A DNA stretch of 16,538 nt from a virus (IMGVR_UViG_2541047850_000009), one strand, 5' to 3'. Counted from the first letter of the stretch, positions 1 through 14,595 are shown. The notes: generated by a model from the sequence alone, not told the origin. Numbers and translations: made by a program.

Positions 1-1230
1 ATGAGCAGAGCACTTAACAAACTGAGCGATACACAGCTGAGGAAAATCAACGGCACACCCGCCCAAAAAACAGCCTTTCTTAATGACGGTGGAAACCTGA
101 GCGTCAGGCATTCAACCAGTGGCCTTTTAACCTGGTATTTCACTTACAGGGCCGGAACGGGAAGGGGGGCACCACCGGAACGCATTAAGCTGGGAAATTA
201 TCCTGATCTGAGCCTGAAATCAGCCAGGGAAAAAGCCGCCCAGTGTCGCGCATGGCTGGCAGAGGGGAAAAATCCACGTCATGAGCTTAATTACACCGTA
301 CAGGAAGCGTTAAAGCCGGTAACGGTTGGTGATGCGCTCACCTACTGGCTTGAGTCGTACGCAAAGGAAAACCGTGTGGATTATGACCCACTGAAAAAGC
401 GGCTAAATAATCACGTAATACAGCACATTGGCCCTATGCCGCTGGATAAATGCGAGCTACGGCACTGGCTGGCCTGTTTTGATCGGGTGGCAAAGCAAGC
501 CCCTGTTTCCGCCGGGTTCCTGCTACAGACATGCAAGCAGGCGCTTAAGTTCTGCCGGAAGCGGCGCTATGCAATCAGCAACGTTCTTGATGATATGAGT
601 GTGGCGGACGTTGGGAAAAAACCGGATATAAGCGAGCGTGTCTTAAGCAACAAAGAACTTGGCGAATTATTGCAGGCACTGGACAAAAAAATATTCTCCC
701 CCTACTACATCGCGCTAATCCGCCTCCTGATTGTGTTCGGATGCCGGACGGTCGAACTTAGGTTATCGGAGATCGGCGAGTGGGATTTTACCGAAATGCT
801 CTGGACTGTTCCGAAGGAGCACAGCAAAACGAAGGTAGCCATATTCCGGCCCATACCGGAAGCAATACTGCCGTTCGTCACGCAGCTGGTGGAGCAGAAC
901 AAGCACACGGGCTTATTGCTGGGGGAAGTGAAACAGGAAACAAGCGTGTCGCAGTACGGCAGATTAGCGCACAGGAGGCTAAATCACCCTCACTGGTCAC
1001 TACATGACATCCGGCGCACCTTTACAACGATGCTGAACGATTTAGGCGTGGATCCTCACGTCGTGGAGCAGCTTACAGGCCACCAGATGCCAGGAATGCA
1101 GCGAGTTTATAATCATTCCCGTTATCTGGATGCTAAACGCAATGCGCTGGATATGTGGATGGAGCGGTTAGGGATACTGGCGGGAACACATGAAAACGTA
1201 ACCGCACTACCAGTAGCCAGAAGAAAATAA
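1..1230 (+). CDS. int: Tyrosine-type site-specific integrase (P4 / CP4-57-like)
   Basis: 409-aa ORF. C-terminal catalytic region carries the conserved tyrosine-recombinase pattern (HDIRRTF, LTGHQ, terminal VYNHSRY with the catalytic Tyr). N-terminal domain is typical of P4-type integrases. Confidence 0.9.
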   Translation: MSRALNKLSDTQLRKINGTPAQKTAFLNDGGNLSVRHSTSGLLTWYFTYRAGTGRGAPPERIKLGNYPDLSLKSAREKAAQCRAWLAEGKNPRHELNYTVQEALKPVTVGDALTYWLESYAKENRVDYDPLKKRLNNHVIQHIGPMPLDKCELRHWLACFDRVAKQAPVSAGFLLQTCKQALKFCRKRRYAISNVLDDMSVADVGKKPDISERVLSNKELGELLQALDKKIFSPYYIALIRLLIVFGCRTVELRLSEIGEWDFTEMLWTVPKEHSKTKVAIFRPIPEAILPFVTQLVEQNKHTGLLLGEVKQETSVSQYGRLAHRRLNHPHWSLHDIRRTFTTMLNDLGVDPHVVEQLTGHQMPGMQRVYNHSRYLDAKRNALDMWMERLGILAGTHENVTALPVARRK

Positions 1231-1247
1231 TTTTTTTCGTGTTTTTT

Positions 1248-1263
1248 CAGTATGCGCATACTG
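1248..1263. promoter_or_regulatory. Perfect 16-bp palindrome CAGTATGCGCATACTG just downstream of the int stop
   Basis: Read directly from the sequence. Not followed by a T-run on either strand, so a protein-binding site is more likely than an intrinsic terminator. Confidence 0.3.
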
Positions 1264-1286
1264 GATATGCGAACAGATACAACGTG

Positions 1287-1323
1287 CAACAATGAGCAAC
1301 AATGTGGAACAACTACGAACAAG
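1287..1323 (-). repeat. Array of 10-bp-periodic direct repeats (minus-strand reading TTGTTC/TTGTTG + N4); candidate operator array
   Basis: Plus strand reads gcaacaa, gcaacaa, ggaacaa, cgaacaa at 10-bp spacing. The reverse complement matches 7465..7489 at 23 of 25 positions. Confidence 0.5.
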
Positions 1324-1593
1324 AGGCGAAAAAGCGTACGGATTTATAAGTGGCTGATTTTTAATGTGTTACTGGTTTTTATACACTAGCGAATCACTCT
1401 TTAAAGAGCGAGAAAAAAGGCATGGAACAATATTTTATGCCTTTGTATTAACATGAATTTAAAAGATTTTATTCTTACTGTTTCATTTTCTGTAAATCAT
1501 ACATCCTCAGTATTTGCCATTCATCACTCTAGCGGGAACAATACGACACAATAAGACACCTGATGACTCTTTAAGAAACGAAAGGGGGCAATA

Positions 1594-1782
1594 GTGTTAA
1601 GCACTGATCGGTTTATACGTGAAAAAGAATGCAAAAAACTAACCGGCCTTAGCCGTACGTGTCGCTACCGCCTGGAAAAGGCCGGACAATTCCCATCACG
1701 TCGTAAACTTGGCGGTCGTTCCGTTGGCTGGTCTTTATCCGAGGTTCTGGCCTGGAAGGATAGCTGCAAGGCAGTTCATTAA
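1594..1782 (+). CDS. alpA: AlpA/Vis-family winged-helix transcriptional regulator (excisionase-like)
   Basis: 62-aa ORF with GTG start 5 nt after AAAGGGGG. The motif LTGLSRTCRYRLEKAGQFP...KLGGRSVGW matches the AlpA-family pattern (GLSRSTIYR...G.FP.P.KLG.R.V.W). Confidence 0.85.
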   Translation: MLSTDRFIREKECKKLTGLSRTCRYRLEKAGQFPSRRKLGGRSVGWSLSEVLAWKDSCKAVH

Positions 1783-2051
1783 TCACGCTGGCGGCACACA
1801 GCCGCCACACATCAATCATCTGAACACAGAGCTATAACCATGAAGATTGAATATACGCCAGAACGTGGGCGGGGATTCGTTCGCCCTGGTGAAACTGAAA
1901 AACAACAAAATTGGGGTTTTTCAGGCATAACAAAAAGCGCCCAGTTACCTGAGCGCCTTTGTGAACGATTAACCTGCTGCACAAAAAATAAATATGAGCA
2001 TTGGAATTATATCAACTGTGTGAAGAAGCGCCACAATTGCCGGATTACAGG

Positions 2052-2080
2052 CAAAAAAAATGCGACCTATGATGGTCGCA
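2052..2080 (-). terminator. Rho-independent terminator for the leftward small-gene unit
   Basis: 7-bp stem TGCGACC / GGTCGCA with a 6-nt loop (2061..2080). On the minus strand it is followed by a run of 8 T (plus-strand A-run 2053..2060). Confidence 0.5.
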
Positions 2081-2156
2081 AAAATATGATATACATGTTG
2101 ATTACACTATGCATCGACAACGATGCCACATTTTTGGCTGGTTGGCAAATCTGTCA

Positions 2157-2342
2157 TCAGGGCGGACAACAACGCCACGATCTCATCTTTCTTGGGCAAT
2201 TTTTAAGAAAATCCTCAAGGGCAAATCTTTTTGGCCTTGCTTCCTGTTCATGGTCAGGCATTTCATCCATTTCTCTTAATTTTTTTTCTACCTGTCTTTC
2301 AAGTATGGATAATGCGATTTCCCGTAATTCTTCGTTGTTCAT
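2157..2342 (-). CDS. Hypothetical small protein (61 aa)
   Basis: ATG preceded by a strong RBS (CAGGAG, 6-nt spacer). Charged helical-looking N-terminus (MNNEELREIALSILERQVEKKLREMDEM). No family recognised. Confidence 0.5.
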   Translation of the reverse strand: MNNEELREIALSILERQVEKKLREMDEMPDHEQEARPKRFALEDFLKNCPRKMRSWRCCPP

Positions 2343-2399
2343 TGTCTACTCCTGTAAAGAAATGCGCCGTAGTTCCTCACACCACGGCGCTGATAGTTT

Positions 2400-2504
2400 T
2401 TATCCTTTGGGTTCTATGCCGCGTTGCTGTAATTCTTTGCGGATTATTCGCTTTATCCAGGCAGCAAGAGAATCATCGCCGTCCTGTTGTTGTGCCTTTT
2501 CCAT
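2400..2504 (-). CDS. Hypothetical very small protein (35 aa, MEKAQQQDGDDSLAAWIKRIIRKELQQRGIEPKG)
   Basis: Below the ORF-track size cut-off and found by hand translation. Same frame as and just upstream of 2157..2342 (minus), separated by two stops. Weak RBS (GGGAAAAG). Confidence 0.3.
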   Translation of the reverse strand: MEKAQQQDGDDSLAAWIKRIIRKELQQRGIEPKG

Positions 2505-2572
2505 CTTTTCCCGTAAGTCAGGATCTAAACGGAACTGGAACGGAGGATTACCACGCCTTTCGTTTTTGTGTA

Positions 2573-2628
2573 TTGACACGTTAATTACACCTCATGTAAT
2601 GTATTTATGTGTAATGACACATTACACA
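2573..2628. promoter_or_regulatory. Divergent control region with operator-like inverted repeats and a TTGACA -35-like hexamer
   Basis: TTGACA at 2573..2578. Inverted repeat ATTACA-N5-TGTAAT at 2584..2600. Perfect 21-bp palindrome TGTGTAATG-ACA-CATTACACA at 2608..2628. Four TGTAAT/ATTACA half-sites in total, placed between leftward (2504) and rightward (2709) gene starts. Confidence 0.45.
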
Positions 2629-2708
2629 CAATCAACACAAAAAGCAAAGCCCCGCACTGTAGGAGCAGTAACGGGGCTTCTAACCAACAACGTAAACTAG
2701 GAGCCGTT

Positions 2709-2906
2709 ATGGTTGCCGTAAATCATATACCACACCTTGTACACACACAAACGGCCTTTGTGTGGCGTTTTCTGGCACTGAGTGCCGGAGAATCTCAAAT
2801 CATCCACGTAACCGCCTGGACGGAACGCGAAGCGCGTAGCCGTTGCCCGTCCGGTTGTGTTGCTGTATTCGCCGCCCGTATTCGTCAGGGGTCACATCAT
2901 GCGTAA
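2709..2906 (+). CDS. Small conserved protein (66 aa), paralog of the C-terminus of the next gene; possibly Ash/Icd-like (family assignment from memory, unverified)
   Basis: ATG with AGGAG RBS at a 5-nt spacer. Shares FVWRF...VTA.TEREAR...ARIRQG..HA with 2899..3363. Stop overlaps the next start (ATGCGTAA). Confidence 0.6.
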   Translation: MVAVNHIPHLVHTQTAFVWRFLALSAGESQIIHVTAWTEREARSRCPSGCVAVFAARIRQGSHHA

Positions 2907-3363
2907 AAACCGCTTGCAAAAAATTATCACGGGGCTGTATGCTTCCCCCGTCGCCCACATGGCGACCGGGTTTGACAGCCTGAATACATCTGGCGGACAG
3001 CCGCCCACATCCGATAAGCGGTTTTTTTGTGTCCGTAAACCTACCCATACCCGCATTATGGCGGGGCGTAACGGGGGAGCCTTTGTGCTCGCTGGTTTCC
3101 AGATGACCAGTCTGTCAACCCTGTTACGTCTCGCCACCATGTTTGACAGCGTAGTAGCGAGACTCCTTAAAATTCATCTGGGAGCCTTTCACATGGCTGT
3201 ATCCGCACGCCCTTACTTTGTCTGGCGCTTTATGCAGTGCCTGACAGACAGCATTGCAATATTCACCGTTACCGCTGCCACTGAGCGCGAAGCACGCGCA
3301 CAGCTGCCGCACGCACATCTTATTTTTGTCGCCCGTATTCGTCAGGGGGTGTGCCATGCCTGA
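2899..3363 (+). CDS. Hypothetical protein (154 aa) whose C-terminal 50 aa is paralogous to the 2709..2906 product
   Basis: Translationally coupled start. C-terminus RPYFVWRF...TEREAR...ARIRQGVCHA. The same 19-nt DNA string cgcccgtattcgtcagggg occurs at 2873..2891 and 3330..3348. Confidence 0.6.
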   Translation: MRKNRLQKIITGLYASPVAHMATGFDSLNTSGGQPPTSDKRFFCVRKPTHTRIMAGRNGGAFVLAGFQMTSLSTLLRLATMFDSVVARLLKIHLGAFHMAVSARPYFVWRFMQCLTDSIAIFTVTAATEREARAQLPHAHLIFVARIRQGVCHA

Positions 3364-3676
3364 CATGACCAATTACCAGTACCTGATTAATCCGCATTTT
3401 AACTGTGAGCATGATATTGCTAAAAAGGTTTATTCCGCTGCGGATGGGGCTACTGACAATATATCAATGGCTGTTTCGTCAATTGGTAGCCTGATGTGGT
3501 ATGCGTCAGAAAATAAGGAATATGACGAAAAGGCCATGCGCATTGATATGGGTAATATCGGTTTGTTACTGGCAATGCTTGGGCAGTTTGATATTTCGTT
3601 ACGGTGCACCATTGAAAATGCCAAAGATGCATTAAATGCTATAAAGAAAGCGAATACTGATTTAAATCGGGGATAA
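3356..3676 (+). CDS. Hypothetical protein (106 aa), AT-rich gene
   Basis: ATG overlaps the preceding stop (ATGCCTGA); AGGGGG lies 8 nt upstream. GC content looks clearly lower than neighbouring genes by eye. No family recognised. Confidence 0.5.
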   Translation: MPDMTNYQYLINPHFNCEHDIAKKVYSAADGATDNISMAVSSIGSLMWYASENKEYDEKAMRIDMGNIGLLLAMLGQFDISLRCTIENAKDALNAIKKANTDLNRG

Positions 3677-3682
3677 ATAATC

Positions 3683-3982
3683 ATGAGAACATATTTATCT
3701 GGCTTGACTGCCAGCGGTTATGCACACCCCCAAATTATCCCCGGCGCTATTTATCTGGATAAGAACGGTAACAGAGTAACGGTAAAAGAACTGATGTTTG
3801 ACCGAGTGTATTTTATCCGTGATGGCTATTCATTTCTTAGTTCGCTGAACGTGGAGATCTTTATTAGCAGATTCAGGCGGGAAATCCCGCTTTCCAGAAA
3901 TAACCATGTGTCATGTATGGATGTTGATAAAAAACTACAGGAACTAAAAAACATGATTGCCGCGTGGAGAGAGCAGAAATGA
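3683..3982 (+). CDS. Hypothetical protein (99 aa), AT-rich gene
   Basis: ATG 6 nt after the previous stop. Its stop overlaps the primase start (ATGA). No family recognised. Confidence 0.5.
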   Translation: MRTYLSGLTASGYAHPQIIPGAIYLDKNGNRVTVKELMFDRVYFIRDGYSFLSSLNVEIFISRFRREIPLSRNNHVSCMDVDKKLQELKNMIAAWREQK

Positions 3983-6102
3983 AAAAAGCGCCAAATTTAA
4001 AACACCAGCCACGTGACAAAATGACGGAAGTCATCATTTTTGCGGGTAGTGATGCGTGGGCACATGCGAAGCAGTGGCAGGAACAGGACGGGCGACTGGC
4101 TGGCGACAGCGTGCCTCCTGTCTGGCTTGGAGAGCAACAACTTGCCGAACTGGATAAGCTGCAAATTGTGCCGGAAGGCCGAAAATCAGTACGCATATTC
4201 AGGGCCGGACATCTTGAGCCAGTAATGATCAAGGCGATTGGTCAGAAGCTGGCGGCGGCAGGCGTACAGGATGCAAATTTTTACCCTGATGGAATGCACG
4301 GTCAGGAGGTGGAGAACTGGCGCGAATATCTGGCCCGTGAGCGGCAGAATCTTTCTGATGGTCTGGTTATTGAGTTTCCGGTAAAGAAAAAAGATACCGG
4401 AAGCCATAGCGATGACGAATTAAAGCCACGCGTTGAAAGTCGCGCCGATGGTGTTTTCTGGGTAACGCCCAAAGTGGATAAGCAGTCAGGCGAAATTATC
4501 CGGCCTGAGACGTGGTTATGTTCTCCGCTTGAACTACTGGGAACGGGGACGATCGGTAAAGAGCATTACCGCGTGATGCGCTGGAAAAAAACCGCAAACC
4601 ATGAAGTCATCACAATGGCGATCCCGTGTGGTGGTATCGGCGACCGTGACGGCTGGCGGTTACTTAAAGATCACGGGCTGAACGTGACAACCAACGGCAA
4701 ATACAGGGCAATCCTGGCGGACTGGATGCAGTTAAGCGGAAGCCATGAGGAATGGCAGTTAAGCACAACAACGGGCTGGCATTTTGGCGCGTACATCATG
4801 CCGGACGGTTCGATCATTGGTGAATCTGAAAAACCGATCCTGTTTACCGGAAAAAGCGCCGCGATTAACGGTTATTCCGTGGCGGGCACGGCGGATGGCT
4901 GGCGCGACAGCGTGGCGCGGCTGGCTGGCGGTAATGCCTCAATGATGCTGGGTGTGGCAACGTCACTGGCAGCGCCTTTAATTGGCCTTGTGGGTGCTGA
5001 CGGCTTCGGGGTGCATCTTTTCGAACAGTCATCGGCAGGTAAGACCACCACGCAGAACATCGCATCAAGTTTATGGGGAGAGCCGGACGCGCAGCGGCTG
5101 ACCTGGTACGGCACGGCGTTAGGTATTGCCAATGAGGCCGAGGCCCATAATGACGGGCTTTTACCACTGGATGAGATAGGCCAGGCCGGAAATGCGCGGG
5201 AAGTGTCAACGTCTGCTTATACGCTGTTTAACGGTTCAGGGAAATTGCAGGGGGCGAAGGATGGCGGCAACAGGGAGATCAAACACTGGCGAACGGTGGC
5301 AATCAGCACCGGAGAAATGGACGTTGAGACATTCCTCAAAAGTGAGGGGATAAAAGTTAAGGCGGGGCAGCTTGTCCGACTGCTTAACGTTCCGATGGAA
5401 AAAGCCACGAAATTTCACGAATACAGCAACGGTAAGGAACATGCTGACGCGTTAAAGGATGCCTGGACAGCAAATCACGGGGCGGCGGGTCGTGAGTGGG
5501 TTAAATGGCTGGCAGGCCACCAGCAGGAGGCAAAGGATACGGTAAGGGAATGCCGCGAACGGTGGCGCAACCTGATACCGGAGAGCTACGGCGAGCAGGT
5601 CCACCGCGTGGGTGAACGTTTCGCCATACTGGAGGCCGCGCTTGTGCTTTCCGGTCATGTAACTGGCTGGGTCGTGCAGGAATGCCGCGACGCGATACAG
5701 CATAACTTTAATGCCTGGGTGAAGGAGTTCGGCACGGGTAACAGGGAATTTAAACAGATGGTTGAACAGGCTGAGGCGTTTTTGTCGTCGTTTGGGTTTA
5801 GCCGCTACCTTCCGTACCCCAATACAGATGAGCGTGATTTACCGATTAAAGAGCTTGCCGGATACAGAAAAGGGAGCATTCGCAACGAAGATGACGAGAT
5901 GCGCTATTACACGTTCCCGCACGTGTTTGAGAGTGAGATAGCGAAGGGATTTAATCCGGCGCATTTTGCGCGTGCCCTGGATGCTGCCGGAATGCTGGAG
6001 AAGGGAAGCGATCGCCGATACAAAAAAAAGGCGCTGGGCAAGATTGGGGGTAAGCAGCATGTTTTTTACGTGCTGATGTTCCAGCCTGATGATGAAGATT
6101 AA
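3979..6102 (+). CDS. Primase-helicase type replication protein (DUF927 / D5-like NTPase, P4 alpha-like)
   Basis: 707-aa ORF. P-loop-like FEQSSAGKTT and Walker-B-like LLPLDEIG in the central region. Sits immediately upstream of an iteron array. Domain family assigned from memory of typical satellite annotations. Confidence 0.75.
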   Translation: MKKAPNLKHQPRDKMTEVIIFAGSDAWAHAKQWQEQDGRLAGDSVPPVWLGEQQLAELDKLQIVPEGRKSVRIFRAGHLEPVMIKAIGQKLAAAGVQDANFYPDGMHGQEVENWREYLARERQNLSDGLVIEFPVKKKDTGSHSDDELKPRVESRADGVFWVTPKVDKQSGEIIRPETWLCSPLELLGTGTIGKEHYRVMRWKKTANHEVITMAIPCGGIGDRDGWRLLKDHGLNVTTNGKYRAILADWMQLSGSHEEWQLSTTTGWHFGAYIMPDGSIIGESEKPILFTGKSAAINGYSVAGTADGWRDSVARLAGGNASMMLGVATSLAAPLIGLVGADGFGVHLFEQSSAGKTTTQNIASSLWGEPDAQRLTWYGTALGIANEAEAHNDGLLPLDEIGQAGNAREVSTSAYTLFNGSGKLQGAKDGGNREIKHWRTVAISTGEMDVETFLKSEGIKVKAGQLVRLLNVPMEKATKFHEYSNGKEHADALKDAWTANHGAAGREWVKWLAGHQQEAKDTVRECRERWRNLIPESYGEQVHRVGERFAILEAALVLSGHVTGWVVQECRDAIQHNFNAWVKEFGTGNREFKQMVEQAEAFLSSFGFSRYLPYPNTDERDLPIKELAGYRKGSIRNEDDEMRYYTFPHVFESEIAKGFNPAHFARALDAAGMLEKGSDRRYKKKALGKIGGKQHVFYVLMFQPDDED

Positions 6103-6124
6103 TCCCCTGTGTGAGGAAAAAAAT

Positions 6125-6463
6125 TGCGGGTTATGCGGGTTATCCTGTGTATAAGTGTATTAAGTGCATGAATATAAAGGAAACCAATAACCCGCACGTA
6201 ACCCGCAAAAGGGCATTTATAACCCGCAAAAGCACGATTATAACCCGCTGGCGAATAACTGAAGTAACACCGGACAGTCATGCGTAACCCGCAGAAAAAA
6301 ACCGTTTGCGGGTTATTTTGAGCGTTTTGCGGGTTACGTGGTGAGCAAATAATAAACAGGGCGTTTTGCAAAATACTGATATAAAAGGATAAAAAATGGT
6401 TAGCACGCTAAGATAACCCAATAACCCGCATAACCCGCACATGTTTCTATATATATATAAATT
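6125..6463. repeat. Replication origin candidate: iteron array (9-bp TAACCCGCA in both orientations) plus AT-rich tract
   Basis: TGCGGGTTA at 6125, 6134, 6307, 6328. TAACCCGCA at 6188, 6199, 6220, 6285, 6422, 6431, with degenerate copies at 6241 and 6414. AT-rich tttctatatatatataaatt at 6443..6463. Confidence 0.7.
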
Positions 6464-6473
6464 GAGGTGGCAA

Positions 6474-6725
6474 ATGACCAGAACACGCAGAGACAGAACA
6501 GAGCCAAAATATAAAGCGTTAGACATGACTGAGCACACCTTAAAGGTGGCAATCAGAACGATAGACCGCCACACGCGGGAAGGATACGCGAAGGAACATC
6601 CCGACCTGATAAGCGCATTCATGACCACGACGGCGGCAAACTTTGCCACGCTGACAGAGCGGGAGATTGCCGAAGCGGAACAGGTAACAACCATCAACGT
6701 TAAAACCGGAGAGCAGACAGCATGA
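6474..6725 (+). CDS. Hypothetical basic small protein (83 aa)
   Basis: ATG after GAGGTG. Stop overlaps the ssb start (ATGA). Lies between the origin and ssb. No family recognised. Confidence 0.5.
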   Translation: MTRTRRDRTEPKYKALDMTEHTLKVAIRTIDRHTREGYAKEHPDLISAFMTTTAANFATLTEREIAEAEQVTTINVKTGEQTA

Positions 6726-7132
6726 CAGCACAGATAGCGGCTTACGGGCGGCTGGTGGACGACCCGCAGGTAAAACAGACCAGCAAGGGCACACCGATGA
6801 CGCTGGCGCGTATGGCGGTATCTTTGCCATGCAGCCAGGCACAGGACGGACAGGCGACGTTATGGTTATCGGTCATCGCATTTGGCAAACAGGCCGACCA
6901 ACTGGCAGGACATGAGAAAGGCAACGTAATCAGCGTATCCGGCGTGATGCAGATAAGCCAGTGGACCGGACAGAACGGGGAGACGCGTCAGGGTTATCAG
7001 GTCATTGCAGACAGCGTAATCAGTGCCCGTGCGGCACGTCCTGGCGGGAACAGACGCAAAACCACAGGCACACAGGGTAATCAGCCACCAGCGGGAGACG
7101 ATGACCCCTACGGTGATGATATTCCGTTCTGA
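6722..7132 (+). CDS. ssb: Single-stranded DNA-binding protein
   Basis: 136-aa ORF. OB-fold-like N-terminal region, glycine/glutamine-rich linker, and the diagnostic acidic tail DDDPYGDDIPF. Confidence 0.85.
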   Translation: MTAQIAAYGRLVDDPQVKQTSKGTPMTLARMAVSLPCSQAQDGQATLWLSVIAFGKQADQLAGHEKGNVISVSGVMQISQWTGQNGETRQGYQVIADSVISARAARPGGNRRKTTGTQGNQPPAGDDDPYGDDIPF

Positions 7133-7144
7133 GGGGTGGGGACG

Positions 7145-7417
7145 ATGGTACATGACCGCATAGCGGAAGAACTGGAGGCGAAAGGCTTTTACCGGAGAGC
7201 GTCGGCGCGATGGGGTGAAGTCATGCAACTGGTGGAGACAGACAAGGAACGGCATCACATCACGATGCGACGGCTGGAATGTTCCAGGAAGGCACAGAGG
7301 CCACCGGAGCCGCCGGATAATTACGGAGACCTGAAAAAGGCGGTCGATCGCACTTATGCCGAAATGGGTATGGATGGTGCTGGTGATGAAATATGGCGAA
7401 ATTACCAGGACAGATAA
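7145..7417 (+). CDS. PerC-family-like transcriptional regulator
   Basis: 90-aa ORF from the ATG at 7145 (the track start at 7136 is GTG). N-terminal motif DRIAEELEAKGFYRRASARWGEV resembles the PerC/Pch signature (AE.LE..G.WRRAA.RW) as I recall it. Confidence 0.5.
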   Translation: MVHDRIAEELEAKGFYRRASARWGEVMQLVETDKERHHITMRRLECSRKAQRPPEPPDNYGDLKKAVDRTYAEMGMDGAGDEIWRNYQDR

Positions 7418-7423
7418 TCACAC

Positions 7424-7446
7424 AGCCGGAGCAATCCGGCTTTTTG
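7424..7446 (+). terminator. Rho-independent terminator after the PerC-like gene
   Basis: Stem GCCGGA / TCCGGC with GCAA tetraloop, followed by TTTTT. Confidence 0.6.
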
Positions 7447-7464
7447 TCATGTTTTGTAAATTAT

Positions 7465-7494
7465 TTGTTCGTGGTTGTTCCACGTTGTTCGCTG
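7465..7494 (+). repeat. Three head-to-tail 10-bp repeats TTGTTCgtgg TTGTTCcacg TTGTTCgctg; candidate operator array about 210 bp upstream of the capsid gene
   Basis: Exact 10-bp periodicity. Matches the reverse complement of 1299..1323 at 23 of 25 positions and 14939..14953 at 15 of 15. Confidence 0.5.
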
Positions 7495-7566
7495 ACCGGA
7501 TCGGCATATTTTACCCGAACTGAATCATGATTATTCTCGCCAGTGGTGCCAGGACGCTGGGGCCAC

Positions 7567-7614
7567 TTTCCCGCCTGTTAATGTGCTCGCCAATATTCAT
7601 TACCAGGCGGGAAA
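7567..7614 (+). promoter_or_regulatory. 11-bp inverted repeat TTTCCCGCCTG ... CAGGCGGGAAA (26-nt spacer) in the capsid-operon leader
   Basis: Read directly from the sequence. Could be an RNA stem-loop or a dyad protein-binding site. Confidence 0.3.
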
Positions 7615-7704
7615 ATGATCGGTGCGATTGCTGATTTCCTTATGAAAAACGGTTGAGTGTTTGCCGCGTCCTGGAGTTCCTTACTTAACTTCAGGACTTT
7701 TTTT

Positions 7705-8862
7705 ATGCCGAGAATAATCGAATTACGCCAGCAGAAAACCGCCATTAAAAATCAGATGCGCGACATGCTGGAGAACGCGGAAAAAGAAAACCGCAGCCTT
7801 AACGATGCTGAGGGCGCAAAATTTGACGAATTACGCGCTAAAGCTGAATCCCTCGATAAAGACATTTCCCGCCTTGAAGCCATTGCAGACGAAGAGCGCA
7901 GTAAACCAGGCAAAAACAGCCAGACCACTGACCCCGCAGAACTACGCAACTACATTCTGACAGGTGAAACCCGCGCATTAAGTACAGGCGTTCCCGCTGA
8001 TGGTGGTTATACCGTTATCCCCGAACTGAACACCGAAATCATGCGAATGCTGGCGGATGAGTCCACCATGCGCCGCATCTGTACCGTGAAGAAAATCAGC
8101 AGCAACGAGTTTAAGCAGCTTGTTTCCGCTGGCGGTGCGACCGTTAACCACGGTGAAGAGGGTAAGACACGCGAACAGACCAGCACCCCGCAGATTAACG
8201 AGGTGAGCATTAAGCTGTATCCGGTCTATGCGTACCCGCGCACCACACAGGAAATCGTGGATTTTTCCGATGTGGACATCCTTTCATGGCTGACGGGTGA
8301 GATTGGCGACACCTTCACGGAAACCGAAGAAAGCGATCTGGTTGTGGGCGACGGTGACAAAAAAGCAAAAGGTTTTTTATCCGTACCCCGTGCAGAGAAG
8401 AACGACAAAGAGCGTGATTTTGGTACGTTGCAGGTAATTAAACCTTCCGAATCTCTGGCGTGGACATCTGCGGACCCGCTGATCGACCTGAAATTTGCAT
8501 TACGTAAAAAATACCGCAAAAACGCGGTCTGGGTGGTTAACTCCACGACGGCGGCAAAACTTCAGAAGGTGAAGAACGCGAACGGTGATTACATCTGGCG
8601 CGACCGTTTACAGGCGGGTGATCCTGATACGTTACTGGGCCTTCCGGTCGAATATCTGGAGTTTATGCCGGATAACGTTATTGCCCTGGGTGACTTCAAA
8701 CGCGGTTACTACATTGTTGATCACGAAACAGGTGTTCGCACCAGACCGGACAACCTCACAGAGCCGGGCTTCATCAAAATTTTCACGCAGAAATATTTAG
8801 GCGGTGGCGTGGTGGATTCGAACGCGATCAAGATTCTGGAACTGCCACAGGACGACGATTAA
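7705..8862 (+). CDS. Major capsid protein, HK97 fold, with N-terminal scaffold-like (delta) coiled-coil domain
   Basis: 385-aa product. N-terminal 90 aa is coiled-coil-like and charged (IIELRQQKTAIKNQMRDMLENAEK...). Followed by a prohead protease gene. Start chosen at the ATG at 7705 rather than the upstream track start. Confidence 0.88.
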   Translation: MPRIIELRQQKTAIKNQMRDMLENAEKENRSLNDAEGAKFDELRAKAESLDKDISRLEAIADEERSKPGKNSQTTDPAELRNYILTGETRALSTGVPADGGYTVIPELNTEIMRMLADESTMRRICTVKKISSNEFKQLVSAGGATVNHGEEGKTREQTSTPQINEVSIKLYPVYAYPRTTQEIVDFSDVDILSWLTGEIGDTFTETEESDLVVGDGDKKAKGFLSVPRAEKNDKERDFGTLQVIKPSESLAWTSADPLIDLKFALRKKYRKNAVWVVNSTTAAKLQKVKNANGDYIWRDRLQAGDPDTLLGLPVEYLEFMPDNVIALGDFKRGYYIVDHETGVRTRPDNLTEPGFIKIFTQKYLGGGVVDSNAIKILELPQDDD

Positions 8863-8873
8863 CAGCATACAGA

Positions 8874-8901
8874 AGGGGCTTAAAAGCCCCTTTAGTGTTT
8901 T
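8874..8901 (+). terminator. Stem-loop after the capsid gene (partial terminator or attenuator, or stabilising hairpin)
   Basis: Stem AGGGGCT / AGCCCCT with TAAA loop, followed by ttagtgtttt. Confidence 0.4.
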
Positions 8902-8916
8902 ATGGGTGAAAAAATT

Positions 8917-9474
8917 ATGAAGAGTATGGAAATCCGGTCATCGGAAATCACTACCAGCGGAGCCGGTACGCTGACGGGCTACGTTGTTCGCTGGGATAAG
9001 CTTTCAGAACTGCTATGGGGGGAGTTTTACGAAAAATTCCAGCGGGGGGCGTTTACTGAGTGGCTTGCGGCGGGTAATGACGTTCGCGGCCTGTATGAGC
9101 ATGACCACAGCATGTTACTGGGGCGCACCCGTTCCGGCACGCTGAAACTGGAAGAGGACGAAACAGGGTTACGCTTTGAACTGACCCCACCGGATACCAG
9201 TACAGGGCGCGACGTTATCGAACTGGTTAAGCGTGGGGACATCTCGGGGATGAGCTTTGGCTTTCGCTCCCGTAAGGATGTATGGGATACCACAACAGAT
9301 CCATGCGTGCGCACCGTGCTGGTGGCGGAACTATACGAAATTACCGTTACATCCGTACCGGCTTACCCTGATTCCGGCGTGGAGCTGGCCCGCCGCTCCC
9401 TGTACGAGCAGCACCCCGAAAAAATGCCGCGTGCGGATAATCGCCGCTGGTGGGCGGATTTAGCGGGGGTGTGA
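8917..9474 (+). CDS. Prohead (capsid maturation) protease, HK97 family
   Basis: About 185 aa with HK97-protease-like length and position directly after the capsid gene. Alternative in-frame start at 8902. Confidence 0.8.
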   Translation: MKSMEIRSSEITTSGAGTLTGYVVRWDKLSELLWGEFYEKFQRGAFTEWLAAGNDVRGLYEHDHSMLLGRTRSGTLKLEEDETGLRFELTPPDTSTGRDVIELVKRGDISGMSFGFRSRKDVWDTTTDPCVRTVLVAELYEITVTSVPAYPDSGVELARRSLYEQHPEKMPRADNRRWWADLAGV

Positions 9475-9475
9475 T

Positions 9476-10687
9476 ATGTGGCCTTTCAGAAGAAAAAAAG
9501 AGCAGCGCAGCATGACGCTTGATGAGTTTATGGCGCTGGCTGGCACATCGAACACGGGGGCGGGTGAGTACGTATCATCGGGGACAGCGGAATCACTGCC
9601 CGCCGTCATGAACGCCGTGACGGTCATCTCTGAGGCGGTGGCTACCATGCCGTGTTACCTGTACCTGGTACGCAATGAGAAGGGGAAGGAGGCCCGAGAG
9701 TGGTTTGATTCTCATCCGGTCGATCACATCCTCAACGAGCGCCCGAACGCATGGCAAACCCCCTACCAGTTTAAGCGAATGATGATCCGCCACTGCCTGT
9801 TAAACGGTAATGCTTATGCGGTGATTCGGTGGGGGCGTGATGGTTTTCCGGTGGCTTTACATCCTTACCCGCCGCAGTCGGTGAACGTGGAGCAGACAGG
9901 TGAGCATAACTGGCGCTACTGCATCACTGACGCCTACACCGGAAACACCCGCAACTATTTACCGTGGGAGGTTCTCCACCTTCGTTACTCCACGGATGAC
10001 GGTTTTATGGGGCGCTCACCTGTAACCATCTGCCGCGAATCGCTGGGGCTTGGGCTGGCCCAACAACGCCACGGCGCGAGCGTGATGCGTGATGGCATGA
10101 TGGCGGCAGGGGTTATCACGTCAGGCGAGTGGCTGGACGGCGTGAAGGGTAAACAGGCATTAGCCGCACTGGAACGCTACAAAGGGGCCAGAAACGCCGG
10201 AAAAACGCCCATCCTTGAAGGGGGTATGAGCTATCAGCAGCTGGGCATGAGTAATCAGGATGCTGAATGGCTGGCCTCCCGTCGCTTCACCATTGAAGAC
10301 ATCGCCCGAATGTTCAACGTCTCGCCGATTTTTTTGCAGGAATACAGCAACAGCACCTACAGCAATTTCAGCGAGGCAAGCCGCGCATTTCTCACCATGA
10401 CGATGCGCCCGTGGCTGGCGAACTTTGAGCAGCAGATAAAAAACGCCCTGCTGGTGGCCTCGCCTGTACCTGGTATCCGGTATCAGGTGGAGTTTGACAG
10501 CGCGGACCTGTTACGGGCCACACCTGGCGAACGCTTTGCCACCTATGAACGCGGCATCAAATCCGGCGTTATGTGCCCGAACGAAGCCCGCGAACGTGAA
10601 GGGCTGTCCCCGCGTGATGGTGGTGATGAGTTCAGCCAGGCATGGAAACAGGAAGTAAAAATCAGCGAGGGAGAAAAACCGGAATGA
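9476..10687 (+). CDS. Portal protein (HK97-type)
   Basis: 403-aa ORF with portal-like length and composition. Start is 1 nt after the protease stop. Flanked by head genes. Confidence 0.85.
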   Translation: MWPFRRKKEQRSMTLDEFMALAGTSNTGAGEYVSSGTAESLPAVMNAVTVISEAVATMPCYLYLVRNEKGKEAREWFDSHPVDHILNERPNAWQTPYQFKRMMIRHCLLNGNAYAVIRWGRDGFPVALHPYPPQSVNVEQTGEHNWRYCITDAYTGNTRNYLPWEVLHLRYSTDDGFMGRSPVTICRESLGLGLAQQRHGASVMRDGMMAAGVITSGEWLDGVKGKQALAALERYKGARNAGKTPILEGGMSYQQLGMSNQDAEWLASRRFTIEDIARMFNVSPIFLQEYSNSTYSNFSEASRAFLTMTMRPWLANFEQQIKNALLVASPVPGIRYQVEFDSADLLRATPGERFATYERGIKSGVMCPNEAREREGLSPRDGGDEFSQAWKQEVKISEGEKPE

Positions 10688-11022
10688 ACATAGGGCGACT
10701 GCGTGACAGGATAACGATTCAGACCCTGAAACAGACCAGGGATATAACCGGCGAAATACTCGAAACGTGGGTGGACGGTCACACACTCTGGGCAAGCGTG
10801 AACATGATCAGCAGCAAGGAGGCCATTTCATCGGGTGCAGAACTGGCGACTGGAACGGTAAGGATATGGATACGCTACAGGAAGGACATCAACGCCACCA
10901 GCCGGATAAAGGTCAATACGGGGCCGCTGGCGGGGCGTGTACTGAATATCATCGGGCAGCCGCTGCCGGATGCCGCCAGGACACGCCTTGAAATTCTTTG
11001 TCGTGAGGGCGCGGAAAAATGA
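10684..11022 (+). CDS. Head closure / head-tail joining protein
   Basis: 112 aa. N-terminal GRLRDRITIQ...TRD...W matches the head-closure family pattern (G.LR.R.TIQ....TRD). ATGA overlap with the portal stop. Confidence 0.75.
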   Translation: MNIGRLRDRITIQTLKQTRDITGEILETWVDGHTLWASVNMISSKEAISSGAELATGTVRIWIRYRKDINATSRIKVNTGPLAGRVLNIIGQPLPDAARTRLEILCREGAEK

Positions 11023-11315
11023 CAGAAGAACTTATCACCCTGGAAGAAGTGAAACTCCATTGCCGCATCGATGGCGACGAGGAAGACCAGTTAATCAGCG
11101 GATACATTGCCGCATCGCTTGAGGCGTGCCAGATACATATAGGCAGGCGCTTTGATGACGGGCTGGCGTTCACGCCAGCCATAAAGATTGGCTGCATGAT
11201 GTTTATCGCTCACCTGTATGAAAATCGCCAGATTGTCGCGGATAACGCAAAAACACGCGTACCCATGACGATAGGCGCACTCTGGACGGCTTACCGTGAT
11301 GTGGGGGTGTACTGA
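11019..11315 (+). CDS. gp6-like head-tail connector protein
   Basis: 98 aa. N-terminal ITLEEVKLHCRIDGDEEDQLISGYIAAS matches the gp6-like connector pattern (ITLEE.K.HLRID.DDED.LI...I.AA). ATGA overlap with the previous gene. Confidence 0.7.
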   Translation: MTEELITLEEVKLHCRIDGDEEDQLISGYIAASLEACQIHIGRRFDDGLAFTPAIKIGCMMFIAHLYENRQIVADNAKTRVPMTIGALWTAYRDVGVY

Positions 11316-11755
11316 TGCCGTGGCAACCATTAAGACGATGCACAGAACCAGGCTGTAACAGGCGCGTGAAGTCCGGCAAGTGTGAGGAGCACAGGCGGGC
11401 GGCATGGCGTGCAGAGGATGCCAGACGAGGACACCGCCGCGCGCGTGGGTACTCCAGACAGTGGGACAAATACCGCGCCATGTATCTGAGTAAAAACCCG
11501 TTATGCGTGCGATGCCTTGAGAAGGGGATATATACGCCCGCCGTGGTGGTGGATCACATTATCCCCATCGATGGCGGCGATGATGTTCTCTTCTGGCCCG
11601 AATGGAACCATCAACCATTGTGCCAGGCGTGTCATAACCAGAAAACGAAATGGCTTGATCTGGCAACAAAAAGCAAGCGTGCCGCAGGTGGATTTCGTGA
11701 AGAGGAAGAACGGGCCGCTAACCGCAATAACTGGATGTATGACGCTGATGAATGA
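11315..11755 (+). CDS. HNH endonuclease (terminase-associated)
   Basis: Paired Cys motifs (CTEPGC, CVRC, CQACHNQ) and the His-Asn-His core VVDHIIP...WNHQPLC. Sits immediately upstream of terS/terL, as in cos-type HK97-like phages. Confidence 0.88.
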   Translation: MPWQPLRRCTEPGCNRRVKSGKCEEHRRAAWRAEDARRGHRRARGYSRQWDKYRAMYLSKNPLCVRCLEKGIYTPAVVVDHIIPIDGGDDVLFWPEWNHQPLCQACHNQKTKWLDLATKSKRAAGGFREEEERAANRNNWMYDADE

Positions 11756-11921
11756 GCGGAAACAAAACCGCCTTATCCGTGGACTTATAAGGCAGCGTGA
11801 CGCATGGAAGACACAGGAAACAGGGCATAAAGATAAAGCGTCAGGACGCGCAGAACGCATCACAGCGAAGCGATTAACCGACCGTGACCGCGAGGTTATG
11901 GAATGTTTCCGCAATCGCTGA
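11748..11921 (+). CDS. Possible small basic protein (57 aa, MNERKQNRLIRGLIRQRDAWK...)
   Basis: Only the part of track ORF 11517..11921 that does not overlap HNH. No convincing RBS. May instead be non-coding DNA holding the packaging site. Confidence 0.22.
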   Translation: MNERKQNRLIRGLIRQRDAWKTQETGHKDKASGRAERITAKRLTDRDREVMECFRNR

Positions 11922-11924
11922 TGA

Positions 11925-12044
11925 GGCTGTATGACGGGGTGGGGGGCGTTTTCAGGACAAACCCGACCCCGCCGGGCACCGACCGCCTCCTCAAATTTTT
12001 ATGCACGGGAATTTTTTGAAAAATAATCTGGCGAAAAAATAAGC
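11925..12044. other. Candidate cos / packaging-initiation region upstream of terS
   Basis: G-rich (gacggggtggggggcg) then C-rich (cccgaccccgccgggcaccgaccgcctcc) segment, then an AT-rich tract. Lies between HNH and terS, where HNH-dependent cos sites usually sit. Confidence 0.3.
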
Positions 12045-12401
12045 ATGTCAAGACCACCGAAAGCCCCCGCCTACCTGGATGACATCGCCGTGAAGCAGTG
12101 GCGGGAAAAATCGCGGCAGCTTGCGGAACGGGGAGACCTGACCCCCGCCGACTGGAGCAATCTGGAACTGTATTGTGTCAACTACTCCATTTACCGGAAA
12201 GCCGTTGCAGACCTTGCGGCGCGCGGGTTCAGCATTGTTAACAGTCAGGGCGGCGAGAGCAGAAACCCCGCATTAAGCGCAAAATCCGACGCTGAAAGGG
12301 TGATGATAAAAATGGCCTCCTTGCTCGGTTTTGACCCGATAAGCCGCCGTAAAAATCCACCGGAAACAGAAGAAGAGGACGAGCTTGACCGCCTGGAATA
12401 A
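12045..12401 (+). CDS. terS: Terminase small subunit (P27-family-like)
   Basis: 118 aa, directly upstream of and overlapping terL. Acidic C-terminal tail. N-terminus (AVKQWREKSRQLAERGDLTPADWSNLELYC) resembles P27-type TerS. Confidence 0.75.
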   Translation: MSRPPKAPAYLDDIAVKQWREKSRQLAERGDLTPADWSNLELYCVNYSIYRKAVADLAARGFSIVNSQGGESRNPALSAKSDAERVMIKMASLLGFDPISRRKNPPETEEEDELDRLE

Positions 12402-14046
12402 GTACGCAGAAGACGTAAAAACGGGCAAAATTCCGGCCTGTAAACGGCTGAAACAGGCCGTTAAACGGTACTTTTCGGACCTTGAAAGCCCCCTTTACAC
12501 GTTCGATCGTGAGGTTGTGGAGCGGTTTATTGCCTTTTCCAGGGTGTGCCCGCACGTAAAAGGGCCGATGCGTGGCAGACCCATTGAGCTGGAGCCGTGG
12601 CAGCAGTTCGCCTTTGCGTGCATCCTCGGCTTTAAGGTTAAGGCCACCGGACGGCGCAAATACACGAGCGCCTTTATCGAAGTGCCGCGCAAAAATGCGA
12701 AATCCACGACCGCCGCGATTCTGGCTAACTGGTTTCTGATTATGGAGAACGGTCAGCAGGATATCTACACCGCAGCGGTGAGCCGTGACCAGGCGCGGAT
12801 CGTCTTTGATGATGCGCGTCAGATGTGCCTTTTATCCCGACCGTTACGCAGGCGGGTGAATATTCAGGCGCATAAGGTGATGCACCCGAAAAGCAACAGC
12901 CTGTTAAAGCCGCTGGCAGCAAAAGCGGCAACCATCGAGGGAACAAACCCCAGCCTTTCCATCGTGGACGAATACCACTTGCACCCCGATAACGGCGTTT
13001 ATTCCGCGCTTGAGCTGGGGATGGGCGCACGTCCCGAAGGGCTGTTATTTGCTATTACCACATCAGGCAGTAACGTCGTTTCAGCCTGTAAGCAGCACTA
13101 TGATTATTGCTGCCAGATCCTGGACGGCGAAGAGGTCAACGATTCAATTTTTGTACTGATTTACGAACTGGACGACGAAAACGAGGTTGATGATCCGGCG
13201 ATGTGGATAAAGGCGAACCCTAATATTGATGTTTCCGTGGATCGTGAAAAACTGGCCTCAACCATCCAGAAAGCGCGGGGTATTCCGTCGCAGTGGGTGG
13301 AGATGATGACAAAGCGATTTAATATCTGGTGCCAGGGGGCTACCCCGTGGATGGGTAACGGCGCATGGGCTGAGTGTGCCGGAACGTTCACGGAGGAAGA
13401 TTTACACGGCCAGGAGTGTTACGCGGGGCTGGACTTATCATCAACCAGCGATATTTCCAGCGTGTGCTATGCCTTTCCGGTCGGTAAAACCATTATGCTG
13501 GTTTCCCGTCACTATCTGCCGGAATTTCAGCTACAGAACCCCGCCAATAAAAACCGCGCCATCTATCGTCAGTGGGCTAAAGCAGGCTGGATACGCACAA
13601 CGCCTGGCGACTGCATTGATTACGACCGGATCAGAGATGACATCATGCAGGACGCGGAGAAATTTAATATCAGGCTGGTGGGCTTTGATACGTGGAACGC
13701 CACGCATCTCAGAACGCAATTACAGGGGGCAGGTTTTGAGGTGGAGCCGTTCCCGCAAACCTACCTCAGATTCAGTCCGGCGGCGAAATCGTTCGAAGTT
13801 TTTGTTAACCGCAGGGTGATTGTGCATCGTGGCGATCCGGTGTTGTCCTGGTCGATGAGTAACGTCGTGATGCAGAGTGACGCGAACGCCAATATCAAGC
13901 CGAACAAGAAAAAATCACCGAACAAGATAGACCCGAGCGTGGCGGCGCTGATGGCGTTTGGTACATTCCAGGCAGAGCATGAGGATTTTGCTTTTGATAT
14001 AAGCGACAGCCACCGCCAGAAACTGGAAGAATTTAGCGGGGTGTAA
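12385..14046 (+). CDS. terL: Terminase large subunit
   Basis: 553-aa ORF. P-loop-like VPRKNAKST in the N-terminal ATPase region and an acidic nuclease-type C-terminal half. Apparent TTG start at 12385, 5 nt after GAGGA, overlapping the terS end. Confidence 0.88.
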   Translation: MTAWNKYAEDVKTGKIPACKRLKQAVKRYFSDLESPLYTFDREVVERFIAFSRVCPHVKGPMRGRPIELEPWQQFAFACILGFKVKATGRRKYTSAFIEVPRKNAKSTTAAILANWFLIMENGQQDIYTAAVSRDQARIVFDDARQMCLLSRPLRRRVNIQAHKVMHPKSNSLLKPLAAKAATIEGTNPSLSIVDEYHLHPDNGVYSALELGMGARPEGLLFAITTSGSNVVSACKQHYDYCCQILDGEEVNDSIFVLIYELDDENEVDDPAMWIKANPNIDVSVDREKLASTIQKARGIPSQWVEMMTKRFNIWCQGATPWMGNGAWAECAGTFTEEDLHGQECYAGLDLSSTSDISSVCYAFPVGKTIMLVSRHYLPEFQLQNPANKNRAIYRQWAKAGWIRTTPGDCIDYDRIRDDIMQDAEKFNIRLVGFDTWNATHLRTQLQGAGFEVEPFPQTYLRFSPAAKSFEVFVNRRVIVHRGDPVLSWSMSNVVMQSDANANIKPNKKKSPNKIDPSVAALMAFGTFQAEHEDFAFDISDSHRQKLEEFSGV

Positions 14047-14059
14047 TGAGGTCAGCAGC

Positions 14060-14341
14060 ATGACAGAAGCCGAAATAACGGGATTAATCCGCCGCGTTGC
14101 CGGAATCAGCCAGCAGGCTGACGAACAGGCCACGCAGCCGGACAGCGTGACAGCCGAAAACTATGCGCGTGTTGTTGCTGAGGTGATGCGCCGTGATGGT
14201 ATAGAACTTAATGGCGTGGATATGCGCAACATACGAACCAGAGTTCTTGAGTTGCTGGCCTACCGTCGCCGTGTGGAGATGTATCGGGAGAAGGAGAAAA
14301 TAACGTACCACTGGAAGAAGCCGGAGCGGTTGCGGCGGTAA
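14060..14341 (+). CDS. Hypothetical protein (93 aa), last gene of the island
   Basis: ATG 9 nt after GAGG. Arg-rich C-terminus. No family recognised. Confidence 0.45.
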   Translation: MTEAEITGLIRRVAGISQQADEQATQPDSVTAENYARVVAEVMRRDGIELNGVDMRNIRTRVLELLAYRRRVEMYREKEKITYHWKKPERLRR

Positions 14342-14595
14342 CTGGTTGATATTCCCGACGGCCCAAAAATGGGTTGGCTACACCCCTCACAACTACGACA
14401 TTTTCGCAGTTTAATTAATGGTCAGCTTAATCGCTAACCCGCTGATATTTTCGGAAACCTCAATTTGAGGAAGTCGGCGCGGTAACTCGCTGAACTTTAA
14501 GCAAAGCGCAAAATTGCGCTTGCTGAATAATCATTATGATTACGCAGATGATTAAGGAATGACCGAAGGCGGAAATTCGCCTGTGGTTAATGGGG

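Follow-up and report, generated by a model that had tools for sequence, protein, structure and literature searches.

The viral DNA sequence IMGVR_UViG_2541047850_000009, analysed here over its whole length of 16,538 nucleotides (the window), is an Escherichia coli phage satellite in which two small, AT-rich open reading frames (ORFs), orfA and orfB, lie just upstream of the primase gene. We consider it probable that this two-gene cassette is not a defence island but one allele of an exchangeable segment in the early operon of a capsid-forming phage-inducible chromosomal island (PICI) of E. coli. The cassette is not a new kind of system: on sequence grounds orfB can be placed in the known DUF4222/RgdR family, of which it is a divergent new member, and orfA belongs to a tiny uncharacterised family. 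The two genes have in fact already been annotated as a pair, namely 'hypothetical protein' and 'DUF4222 domain-containing protein'. The features that carry this reading are as follows, with the loci used for comparison numbered from L001:

3325-3358, plus strand: conserved left junction (…CGCCCGTATTCGTCAGGGGGTGTGCCATG), the left breakpoint and a putative translational-coupling site, from blastn against L002-L006 and a junction alignment.
3356 (ATG) to 3676 (stop), plus strand: orfA, 106 amino acids, a predicted helical hairpin of the phrog_15327 family.
3359-3937, plus strand: exchangeable low-GC block, a mosaic replacement segment, from blastn breakpoints and an identical block in L020.
3683 (ATG) to 3982 (stop), plus strand: orfB, 99 amino acids, a divergent RgdR-family (DUF4222) protein with a predicted Tudor/SH3-like barrel and a C-terminal helix.
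3979-6102, plus strand: replication initiator, a DUF927 primase/helicase (PF06048, expectation value (E) 1.6e-48; phrog_1139), whose ATG overlaps the orfB stop.

Both ORFs, of 106 and 99 residues as given by an initial annotation made from the sequence alone, are real coding genes under purifying selection, since the ratio of non-synonymous to synonymous substitutions (dN/dS) is 0.06-0.5 for each of them in the six alleles compared, and since orfA homologues of 30-39% identity keep the same length. The marked AT-richness that had been noticed also held up in a sliding-window calculation: the guanine-plus-cytosine (GC) fraction is 0.399 for orfA, 0.417 for orfB and 0.405 for 3356-3982 as a whole, against 0.516 for the island (1-14400) and 0.54 for the flanking icd2 and primase genes, and values as low occur in only 0.7% of 627-nt windows across the 16.5-kb sequence. 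The lowest-GC windows form two minima, one at the cassette and one in the int-alpA intergenic region; a further dip at 6000-6600 is the region of the probable replication origin. Spacing is tight: orfA begins with an ATG that is 8 nt inside the preceding icd2 gene, the gap between orfA and orfB is 6 nt, and at 3979-3982 the orfB stop and the ATG of the primase overlap (ATGA). A promoter and terminator scan found no plus-strand site within the cassette, where promoter-like sites were fewer than in shuffled sequences.

The initial annotation had recognised no family for either protein, and this did not hold for orfB, which matches Pfam DUF4222 (PF13973) at 60.2 bits against a cut-off of 27 (E 1.4e-16, residues 17-67) and phrog_285 at E 2.7e-21. 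The DUF4222 gene of the O157:H7 strain DEC4E (L003, 7164-7463), which has the published R20-G21-D22, is RgdR and served as the reference. Both proteins are 99 residues long, and BLASTP aligns orfB to RgdR end to end over residues 1-99 (33% identity, E 1e-15), and the alignment covers the N-terminal SGLTASG segment as well as the C-terminal helix. In an alignment of 52 family sequences, the invariant or nearly invariant positions are G7, T9-G12 (within the SGLTASG motif), G21, I23, Y24, D26 and G29, then V32, K35, R46, G48, Y49, V57, F60 and F64, and towards the C-terminus S77, Q86, M91, R96 and K99; Arg20 is variable. From the same alignment AlphaFold2 predicts for orfB a five-stranded small barrel at residues 20-66, with a predicted local distance difference test score (pLDDT) of ~90, and a C-terminal helix at 78-98, while the N-terminus is modelled with low confidence, yet bears the conserved SGLTASG motif. 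The barrel resembles bacterial Tudor-like domains that interact with RNA polymerase (N-terminal in CarD/CdnL, C-terminal in UvrD/PcrA) at a sequence identity of 8-17%, and FeoA, KOW, eukaryotic Tudor and VapX structures match it equally well; the resemblance is one of fold class only. Sequence searches of the PDB with the family profiles of orfA and orfB gave only chance matches, with E of at least 0.02.

The DUF4222 gene keeps a fixed position. In every E. coli locus examined (L001-L007, L018-L021) the gene, 294-300 nt in length, has at its end an ATGA that overlaps the initiator start; this overlap was found in 12 of 12 loci, whether the initiator is a DUF927 protein, a 'DNA primase family' or 'primase-like DNA-binding' protein or a RepA-family helicase. 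Among 5,426 complete E. coli genomes, 474 have an orfB-type allele, which overlaps a replication gene in 38 of 40 sampled rows, and 1,459 have RgdR-type alleles, with such an overlap in all 34 sampled full-length matches; the intact cassette is present in 471 of these genomes (~9%), beside three kinds of replication gene. Because sampled full-length E. coli copies are always directly upstream of the initiator and overlap it, DUF4222 is, as judged from gene order, a position-fixed core gene of the early operon tied to the replication region rather than cargo. This is in line with an earlier report of RgdR in every E. coli PICI analysed (Fillol-Salom et al. 2018, PMC6092414). The initial annotation had named homology to a housekeeping-type replication accessory factor as a finding that would speak against novel cargo; orfB, as a putative factor of this kind, approaches this through its synteny only. 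As a separate observation, three of the initiator kinds (DUF927, DNA primase family, RepA-family helicase) share an N-terminal domain of ~125 residues, phrog_2850 (3979-4350 in the window; L002-L007), whose function is unannotated; its place is directly after the DUF4222 gene, for whose product it is a candidate partner.

Shorter relatives occur in phages. In the 50,697 phage records searched, RgdR matches a 59-residue protein that consists of the core only, in temperate phages of Escherichia, Klebsiella, Salmonella, Shigella and Yersinia, whereas orfB has no tblastn match there. These lambdoid proteins (vB_EcoS-733R5, SfV, Stx phages) share the β-barrel core, which corresponds to RgdR residues 24-68, and differ from orfB and RgdR in having neither the N-terminal SGLTASG segment nor the C-terminal helix. 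Like orfB they are encoded in the early operon just upstream of replication genes, and in one group the gene overlaps the start of gene O: in Escherichia phage vB_EcoS-733R5 an unannotated 59-residue DUF4222 ORF (L014, 3980-4159), which lies under a gene call on the opposite strand, overlaps with the ATG of the gene for replication protein O. SfV and an Stx1 phage have the DUF4222 ORF between a cII-like gene and the replication genes, with an Ash-family gene immediately after it; the ORF at 3001-3180 of L016 is unannotated and lies in another frame inside the over-extended 5' end of the Ash-family gene, and the same out-of-frame match in the Stx1 phage (L017, 3001-3162) lies under a gene annotated 'Ant'. 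L014 and L016 are the two lambdoid phages in which the absence of an annotation was checked by listing the ORFs.

Another explanation is that orfB is selected, like RgdR of O157:H7, as a regulator of host virulence that activates LEE/type III secretion and represses motility. RgdR is ECs1581 of OI-51 in E. coli O157:H7; it activates LEE1, represses motility, affects Congo red binding and binds DNA non-specifically with low affinity (PMC3378721, PMC10877973). As for orfB, it is a full-length homologue of RgdR, which is encoded by EcCIEDL933 (OI-51/CP-933C): the two share the Pfam family, the length, the SGLTASG motif, the core residues I23, D26, R46, G48, Y49, F60 and F64, the position overlapping the initiator, and the same kind of island at the same roxA-phoQ site. 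The window also has a gene at 7136-7417, at the place where the annotation of L001 (98% identical) gives a 'PerC family transcriptional regulator', so that the island has homologues of two LEE1 activators, PerC and RgdR. However, the RGD motif at residues 20-22 is needed for activation of type III secretion by RgdR (PMC3378721), and in the RgdR variant of strain ED1a the change R20C abolishes both this activation and DNA binding (PMC3378721, PMC10877973), whereas orfB has P20-G21-A22 here; the host-regulatory activity of RgdR is therefore not simply transferable to orfB. Arg20 is not conserved in the family, identity to RgdR is just 33%, the family is also found in E. coli negative for the enterocyte effacement locus (LEE), and the 59-residue core occurs in Klebsiella, Salmonella and Yersinia phages. 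The orfB gene further differs from RgdR in GC content (0.42 as compared with 0.48-0.51) and in being preceded by orfA, where RgdR-type islands have a protein of 77-80 residues with no detectable homology to orfA (hhalign probability 0.2%). We thus regard selection of orfB for virulence regulation as quite improbable.

Upstream of the DUF4222 gene, the slot that begins at the Icd-like gene is variable, as the initial annotation had supposed. Up to DUF4222 it holds between one and four small ORFs, of which seven related islands show five different combinations, and a DUF4222 allele is retained in every one of them. Blastn similarity to the sister islands L002-L006 ends at about 3350-3359, at the 3' end of icd, and resumes at 3938, so that the final 45 nt of orfB belong to the conserved backbone, and the foreign block as defined by homology breakpoints is 3359-3937. 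In L005 the primase region is 96.4% identical, and 3360-3937 is replaced by three other small ORFs and an RgdR-type allele, while L020, a different and small PICI beside cspD/clpS, contains the same 627 nt at 100% identity. On the left, 11 E. coli loci (L001-L006 and L018-L021 among them) share a conserved junction, …CGCCCGTATTCGTCAGG(G/A)GGTGTGCCATG…, which holds a Shine-Dalgarno-like run together with the ATG of whichever small gene follows; it forms the direct repeat D2 with 2868-2891, a near-copy at the end of icd1. The right junction ends in ATGA in all 12 loci. We infer from these sequences that homologous recombination at the two junctions moves the block between satellites. A natural recombinant is present in E. 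coli DETEC-S792 (L021, 3001-3627), where orfA is followed by a DUF4222 gene of mixed type, the first 7 residues being orfB-like and the remainder, with R19-P20-G21-D22, RgdR-type. AT-richness is common to the slot, as the gene for the 77-80-residue protein in RgdR-type islands has a GC content of 0.39-0.40.

The protein encoded by orfA is, according to sequence profiles and a structure model, a helical hairpin of a very small family restricted to satellites. It matches phrog_15327, an uncharacterised prophage/satellite family, over its full length (E 2.5e-71, residues 1-106 on profile positions 1-106 of 106), and has no Pfam, NCBIfam or significant PADLOC match. A word-indexed search of 5.8 billion proteins in a database clustered at 90% identity gave 19 clusters, all of them close and mainly from E. 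coli, and 14 matches were found among 1.84 billion cluster representatives; one of the 14, the eukaryotic tetratricopeptide-repeat (TPR) protein P0161, was judged to be a chance similarity amplified by repeats. AlphaFold2 models a two-helix hairpin (residues 19-51 and 58-105, pLDDT 78.5) whose structural matches are generic only, and there was no significant match in BFVD or, by sequence, in the PDB. A relation to WXG100/ESAT-6-like proteins is not indicated, as orfA has no WXG motif and is only 5-11% identical to WXG100/EsxA-like hairpins, and hundreds of unrelated coiled coils score just as well. Remote-homology searches and structure prediction, which had been proposed as a check on the cassette, have thus given a family and a barrel for orfB and a modelled hairpin for orfA, and no solved-structure relative of either in a sequence search of the PDB, nor any defence family in PADLOC.

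Two distant orfA homologues were found on contigs (L008, L012), both in satellite-like islands with an integrase, an HTH/AlpA gene, an Icd-like gene, small genes and either a RepA-type helicase or a Zn-ribbon/Toprim primase; L008 also has a protease-capsid fusion. The homologue in L008 starts 8 nt inside the Icd-like gene, as in the window, and that in L012 comes third among the small genes that follow the Icd-like gene. Across three diverged satellite lineages, then, orfA sits between an Icd-like gene and a replication gene, with its start inside the former in two of them, a synteny across species that rests on few metagenomic loci. The GC content of the distant homologues equals that of their own loci (0.48 vs 0.47 and 0.56 vs 0.555), so low GC is a trait of the E. 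coli allele and not of the orfA family. The same loci bear on whether orfA and orfB might be a self-contained module of two proteins that act only on each other, for instance a toxin-antitoxin system or another obligate cognate pair. The next gene after the orfA homologue in both L008 and L012 is an unrelated small gene and not DUF4222, orfA precedes an RgdR-type DUF4222 in L021, DUF4222 stands alone in phages, and there is no match to toxin or antitoxin families in Pfam or NCBIfam; we consider such a pair very improbable indeed.

The control region that precedes the cassette contains the following elements:

2937-2986, plus strand: target sites (a1/b1) for the C4 antisense RNA (borderline match to Rfam RF03163, 46.8 bits with a gathering threshold of 46.7).
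3054-3141, plus strand: gene for the C4 antisense RNA, an immunity RNA of the P1 immI/P4 cI type (Rfam RF01695, 72.6 bits against 45, full-length).
3193-3363, plus strand: icd2, a second small Icd-like gene, whose 3' end contains the Shine-Dalgarno sequence and ATG of orfA (NCBIfam NF033153, 53.7 bits against 25).

The window therefore has the elements of a P1 immI-type region, with a C4 antisense RNA, a1/b1 targets upstream of it and an Icd-like ORF downstream, and the order of its early plus-strand genes is icd1, a1b1, C4 RNA, icd2, orfA, orfB and primase. The immI operon of P1 is c4-icd-ant, with the antirepressor gene ant in the slot downstream of c4-icd; ant starts inside the end of icd, just as orfA does in the window. 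The left operon of phage P4 is likewise similar, with the cI RNA and Icd-like ORF, epsilon, ORF151, ORF106 and the alpha primase, such that a C4-family immunity RNA, an Icd-like ORF (the 'cI' ORF of P4 ends in an Icd-like motif), small genes and a primase follow in the same order, and the gene for helper derepression, epsilon, holds the slot that orfA and orfB hold in the window. On this basis the two small proteins might block or manipulate helper or competing phages, with orfA acting for instance as an antirepressor or inhibitor like epsilon. The variability and AT-richness of the slot and the absence of orfA and of this orfB allele from the phage collection, P4 included, speak in favour of such cargo.

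The proteins themselves do not point that way. Neither orfA nor orfB has an antirepressor match (Ant/KilAC/AntA) in Pfam, NCBIfam or annotated PHROG, and homology to epsilon, ORF151, ORF106, the cI ORF or ORF88 of P4 was rejected, with hhalign probabilities of at most 8.6%; the highest, between DUF4222 and the N-terminus of ORF151 (E 0.004), is weak and was not accepted as homology. PADLOC-DB 2.0 gave no significant match, the best for orfA being DdmE at E 0.032 (10.5 bits) and none being found for orfB, and orfB is in a core family whose position at the initiator is fixed. In the literature on capsid-forming PICIs, immune hotspots are expected to flank the packaging module (10.1101/2025.02.11.637232), and the published island EcCIEDL933 has a negligible effect on helper fitness (PMC10085698). 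The suggestion that the cassette is anti-phage cargo is accordingly not upheld for orfB; for orfA helper interference is possible, its position being the evidence. For the cassette as a whole we regard interference cargo as unlikely.

C4 RNA is present in the window, L001, L004 and L006, and was checked for and found absent in L002, L003, L005, L007, L008 and L012. Since L002 has the same cassette, we treat the C4 module as context and not as part of the cassette. The 154-residue 'Icd-like protein' ORF that PGAP annotates in L001 (window 2899-3363) encloses the C4 RNA as well as the a1/b1 sites; this annotation is probably over-extended, and the second icd gene is likely to be 3193-3363. In L006 (4204-4280) a match to the Hfq-binding small RNA isrK (66 bits against 50) lies just upstream of the C4 RNA, and no isrK match was found in the window. 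A 14-nt near-copy, ATGTTTGACCGAGT, of the sequence that follows the C4 RNA, ATGTTTGACAGCGT (3139-3152), is present inside orfB (3794-3807), which may be due to chance or may be a further C4-related site.

Our preferred reading of the cassette as an exchangeable early-operon allele can be put into a tentative mechanism. After induction, the tight spacing would let translation pass from icd2 through orfA and orfB to the primase, so that DUF4222 would be made together with the replication initiator by translational coupling. We suggest that DUF4222 is a small accessory regulator of the early or replication programme that associates with DNA or RNA polymerase through its Tudor/SH3-like barrel, while orfA, in the slot of P4 epsilon and of the P1 antirepressor, could be a protein-binding adaptor. 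The host effects of RgdR (LEE1 up, motility down) would then be by-products of particular alleles, and the orfB allele is unlikely to reproduce them because it has no Arg20. Several points weigh against this proposal. The tie between DUF4222 and replication is one of synteny only, and in some lambdoid phages DUF4222 is followed by an Ash-family gene and not by an initiator. The published RgdR data concern host transcription, not satellite replication. For orfA, which has no informative relative in sequence or structure, the proposed role is deduced from position, and translational coupling is deduced from spacing. In addition, the C4 RNA is absent from several islands with the same cassette, L002 among them, so control by C4 is not intrinsic to it.

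A more far-reaching proposal, which we consider a long shot, is that DUF4222 proteins are replication-coupled licensing factors of temperate phages and satellites. Through the small Tudor-like barrel they would attach to DNA or RNA polymerase and counteract silencing of the H-NS type around AT-rich early regions and origins, and specificity for host or helper would be set by the interchangeable alleles in concert with hairpin proteins encoded upstream, such as orfA. By our own comparison, the RgdR phenotypes (LEE1 up, motility down, Congo red binding up) may be said to resemble those of an hns mutant.

With regard to the origin itself, the cassette can be ruled out. A sequence just after the primase gene is the probable replication origin instead:

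6118-6465: probable replication origin, with ten exact TGCGGGTTA iterons (6125-6439) in both orientations flanking an AT-rich stretch.

These 10 matches compare with 0.14 expected by chance; all are at 6125-6439, and there are none in the cassette or elsewhere in the window.

The remaining features support the assignment of the window as a capsid-forming PICI of the OI-51/EcCIEDL933 type adjoining phoQ:

1-1230: integrase.
1594-1782: AlpA.
2400-2579, reverse strand: Arc/YlcI-like gene.
15078-16538, minus strand: phoQ, at the right end of the window.

The primase gene is followed by a small gene, a single-stranded DNA-binding protein (SSB) gene and then a full HK97-type head and packaging module. 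The island has an integrase, AlpA, a primase and its own capsid, protease, portal, head-tail connectors, HNH and terminase genes, and no tail or lysis genes; AlpA, primase and SSB are supported by Pfam/PHROG matches. In L001 (E. coli NMBU-W12E19), which is 97-98% identical to the window over 2645-6200, PGAP annotates the module as capsid, protease, portal, head-closure, connector, HNH and terminase. The insertion site, roxA-phoQ, is that of O-island 51, and the best whole-window matches are variants of O-island 51 in O157:H7 and its relatives (88% coverage, 96.5% identity). OI-51/CP-933C was identified as a PICI by Flockhart et al. 2012 and Fillol-Salom et al. 2018, and was named the capsid-forming PICI EcCIEDL933 in later work. 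The whole window is present in none of the complete E. coli genomes of the collection searched, the early region being among the parts that differ, and its combination of backbone and early region is thus a new mosaic.

Taken together, the interpretation offered by the initial annotation is only partly supported, and the cassette can be removed from the list of likely new defence systems. RgdR has so far been described only as a regulator of virulence in E. coli O157:H7, and no explanation has been given of what it does for its satellite. The overlap of DUF4222 with an initiator of any type, and the short relatives in the early region of phages, point to a native early or replication function that can be tested. 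The two conserved junctions supply a ribosome-binding site and a start codon to whichever gene is plugged in between them, which helps in the annotation and engineering of PICIs.

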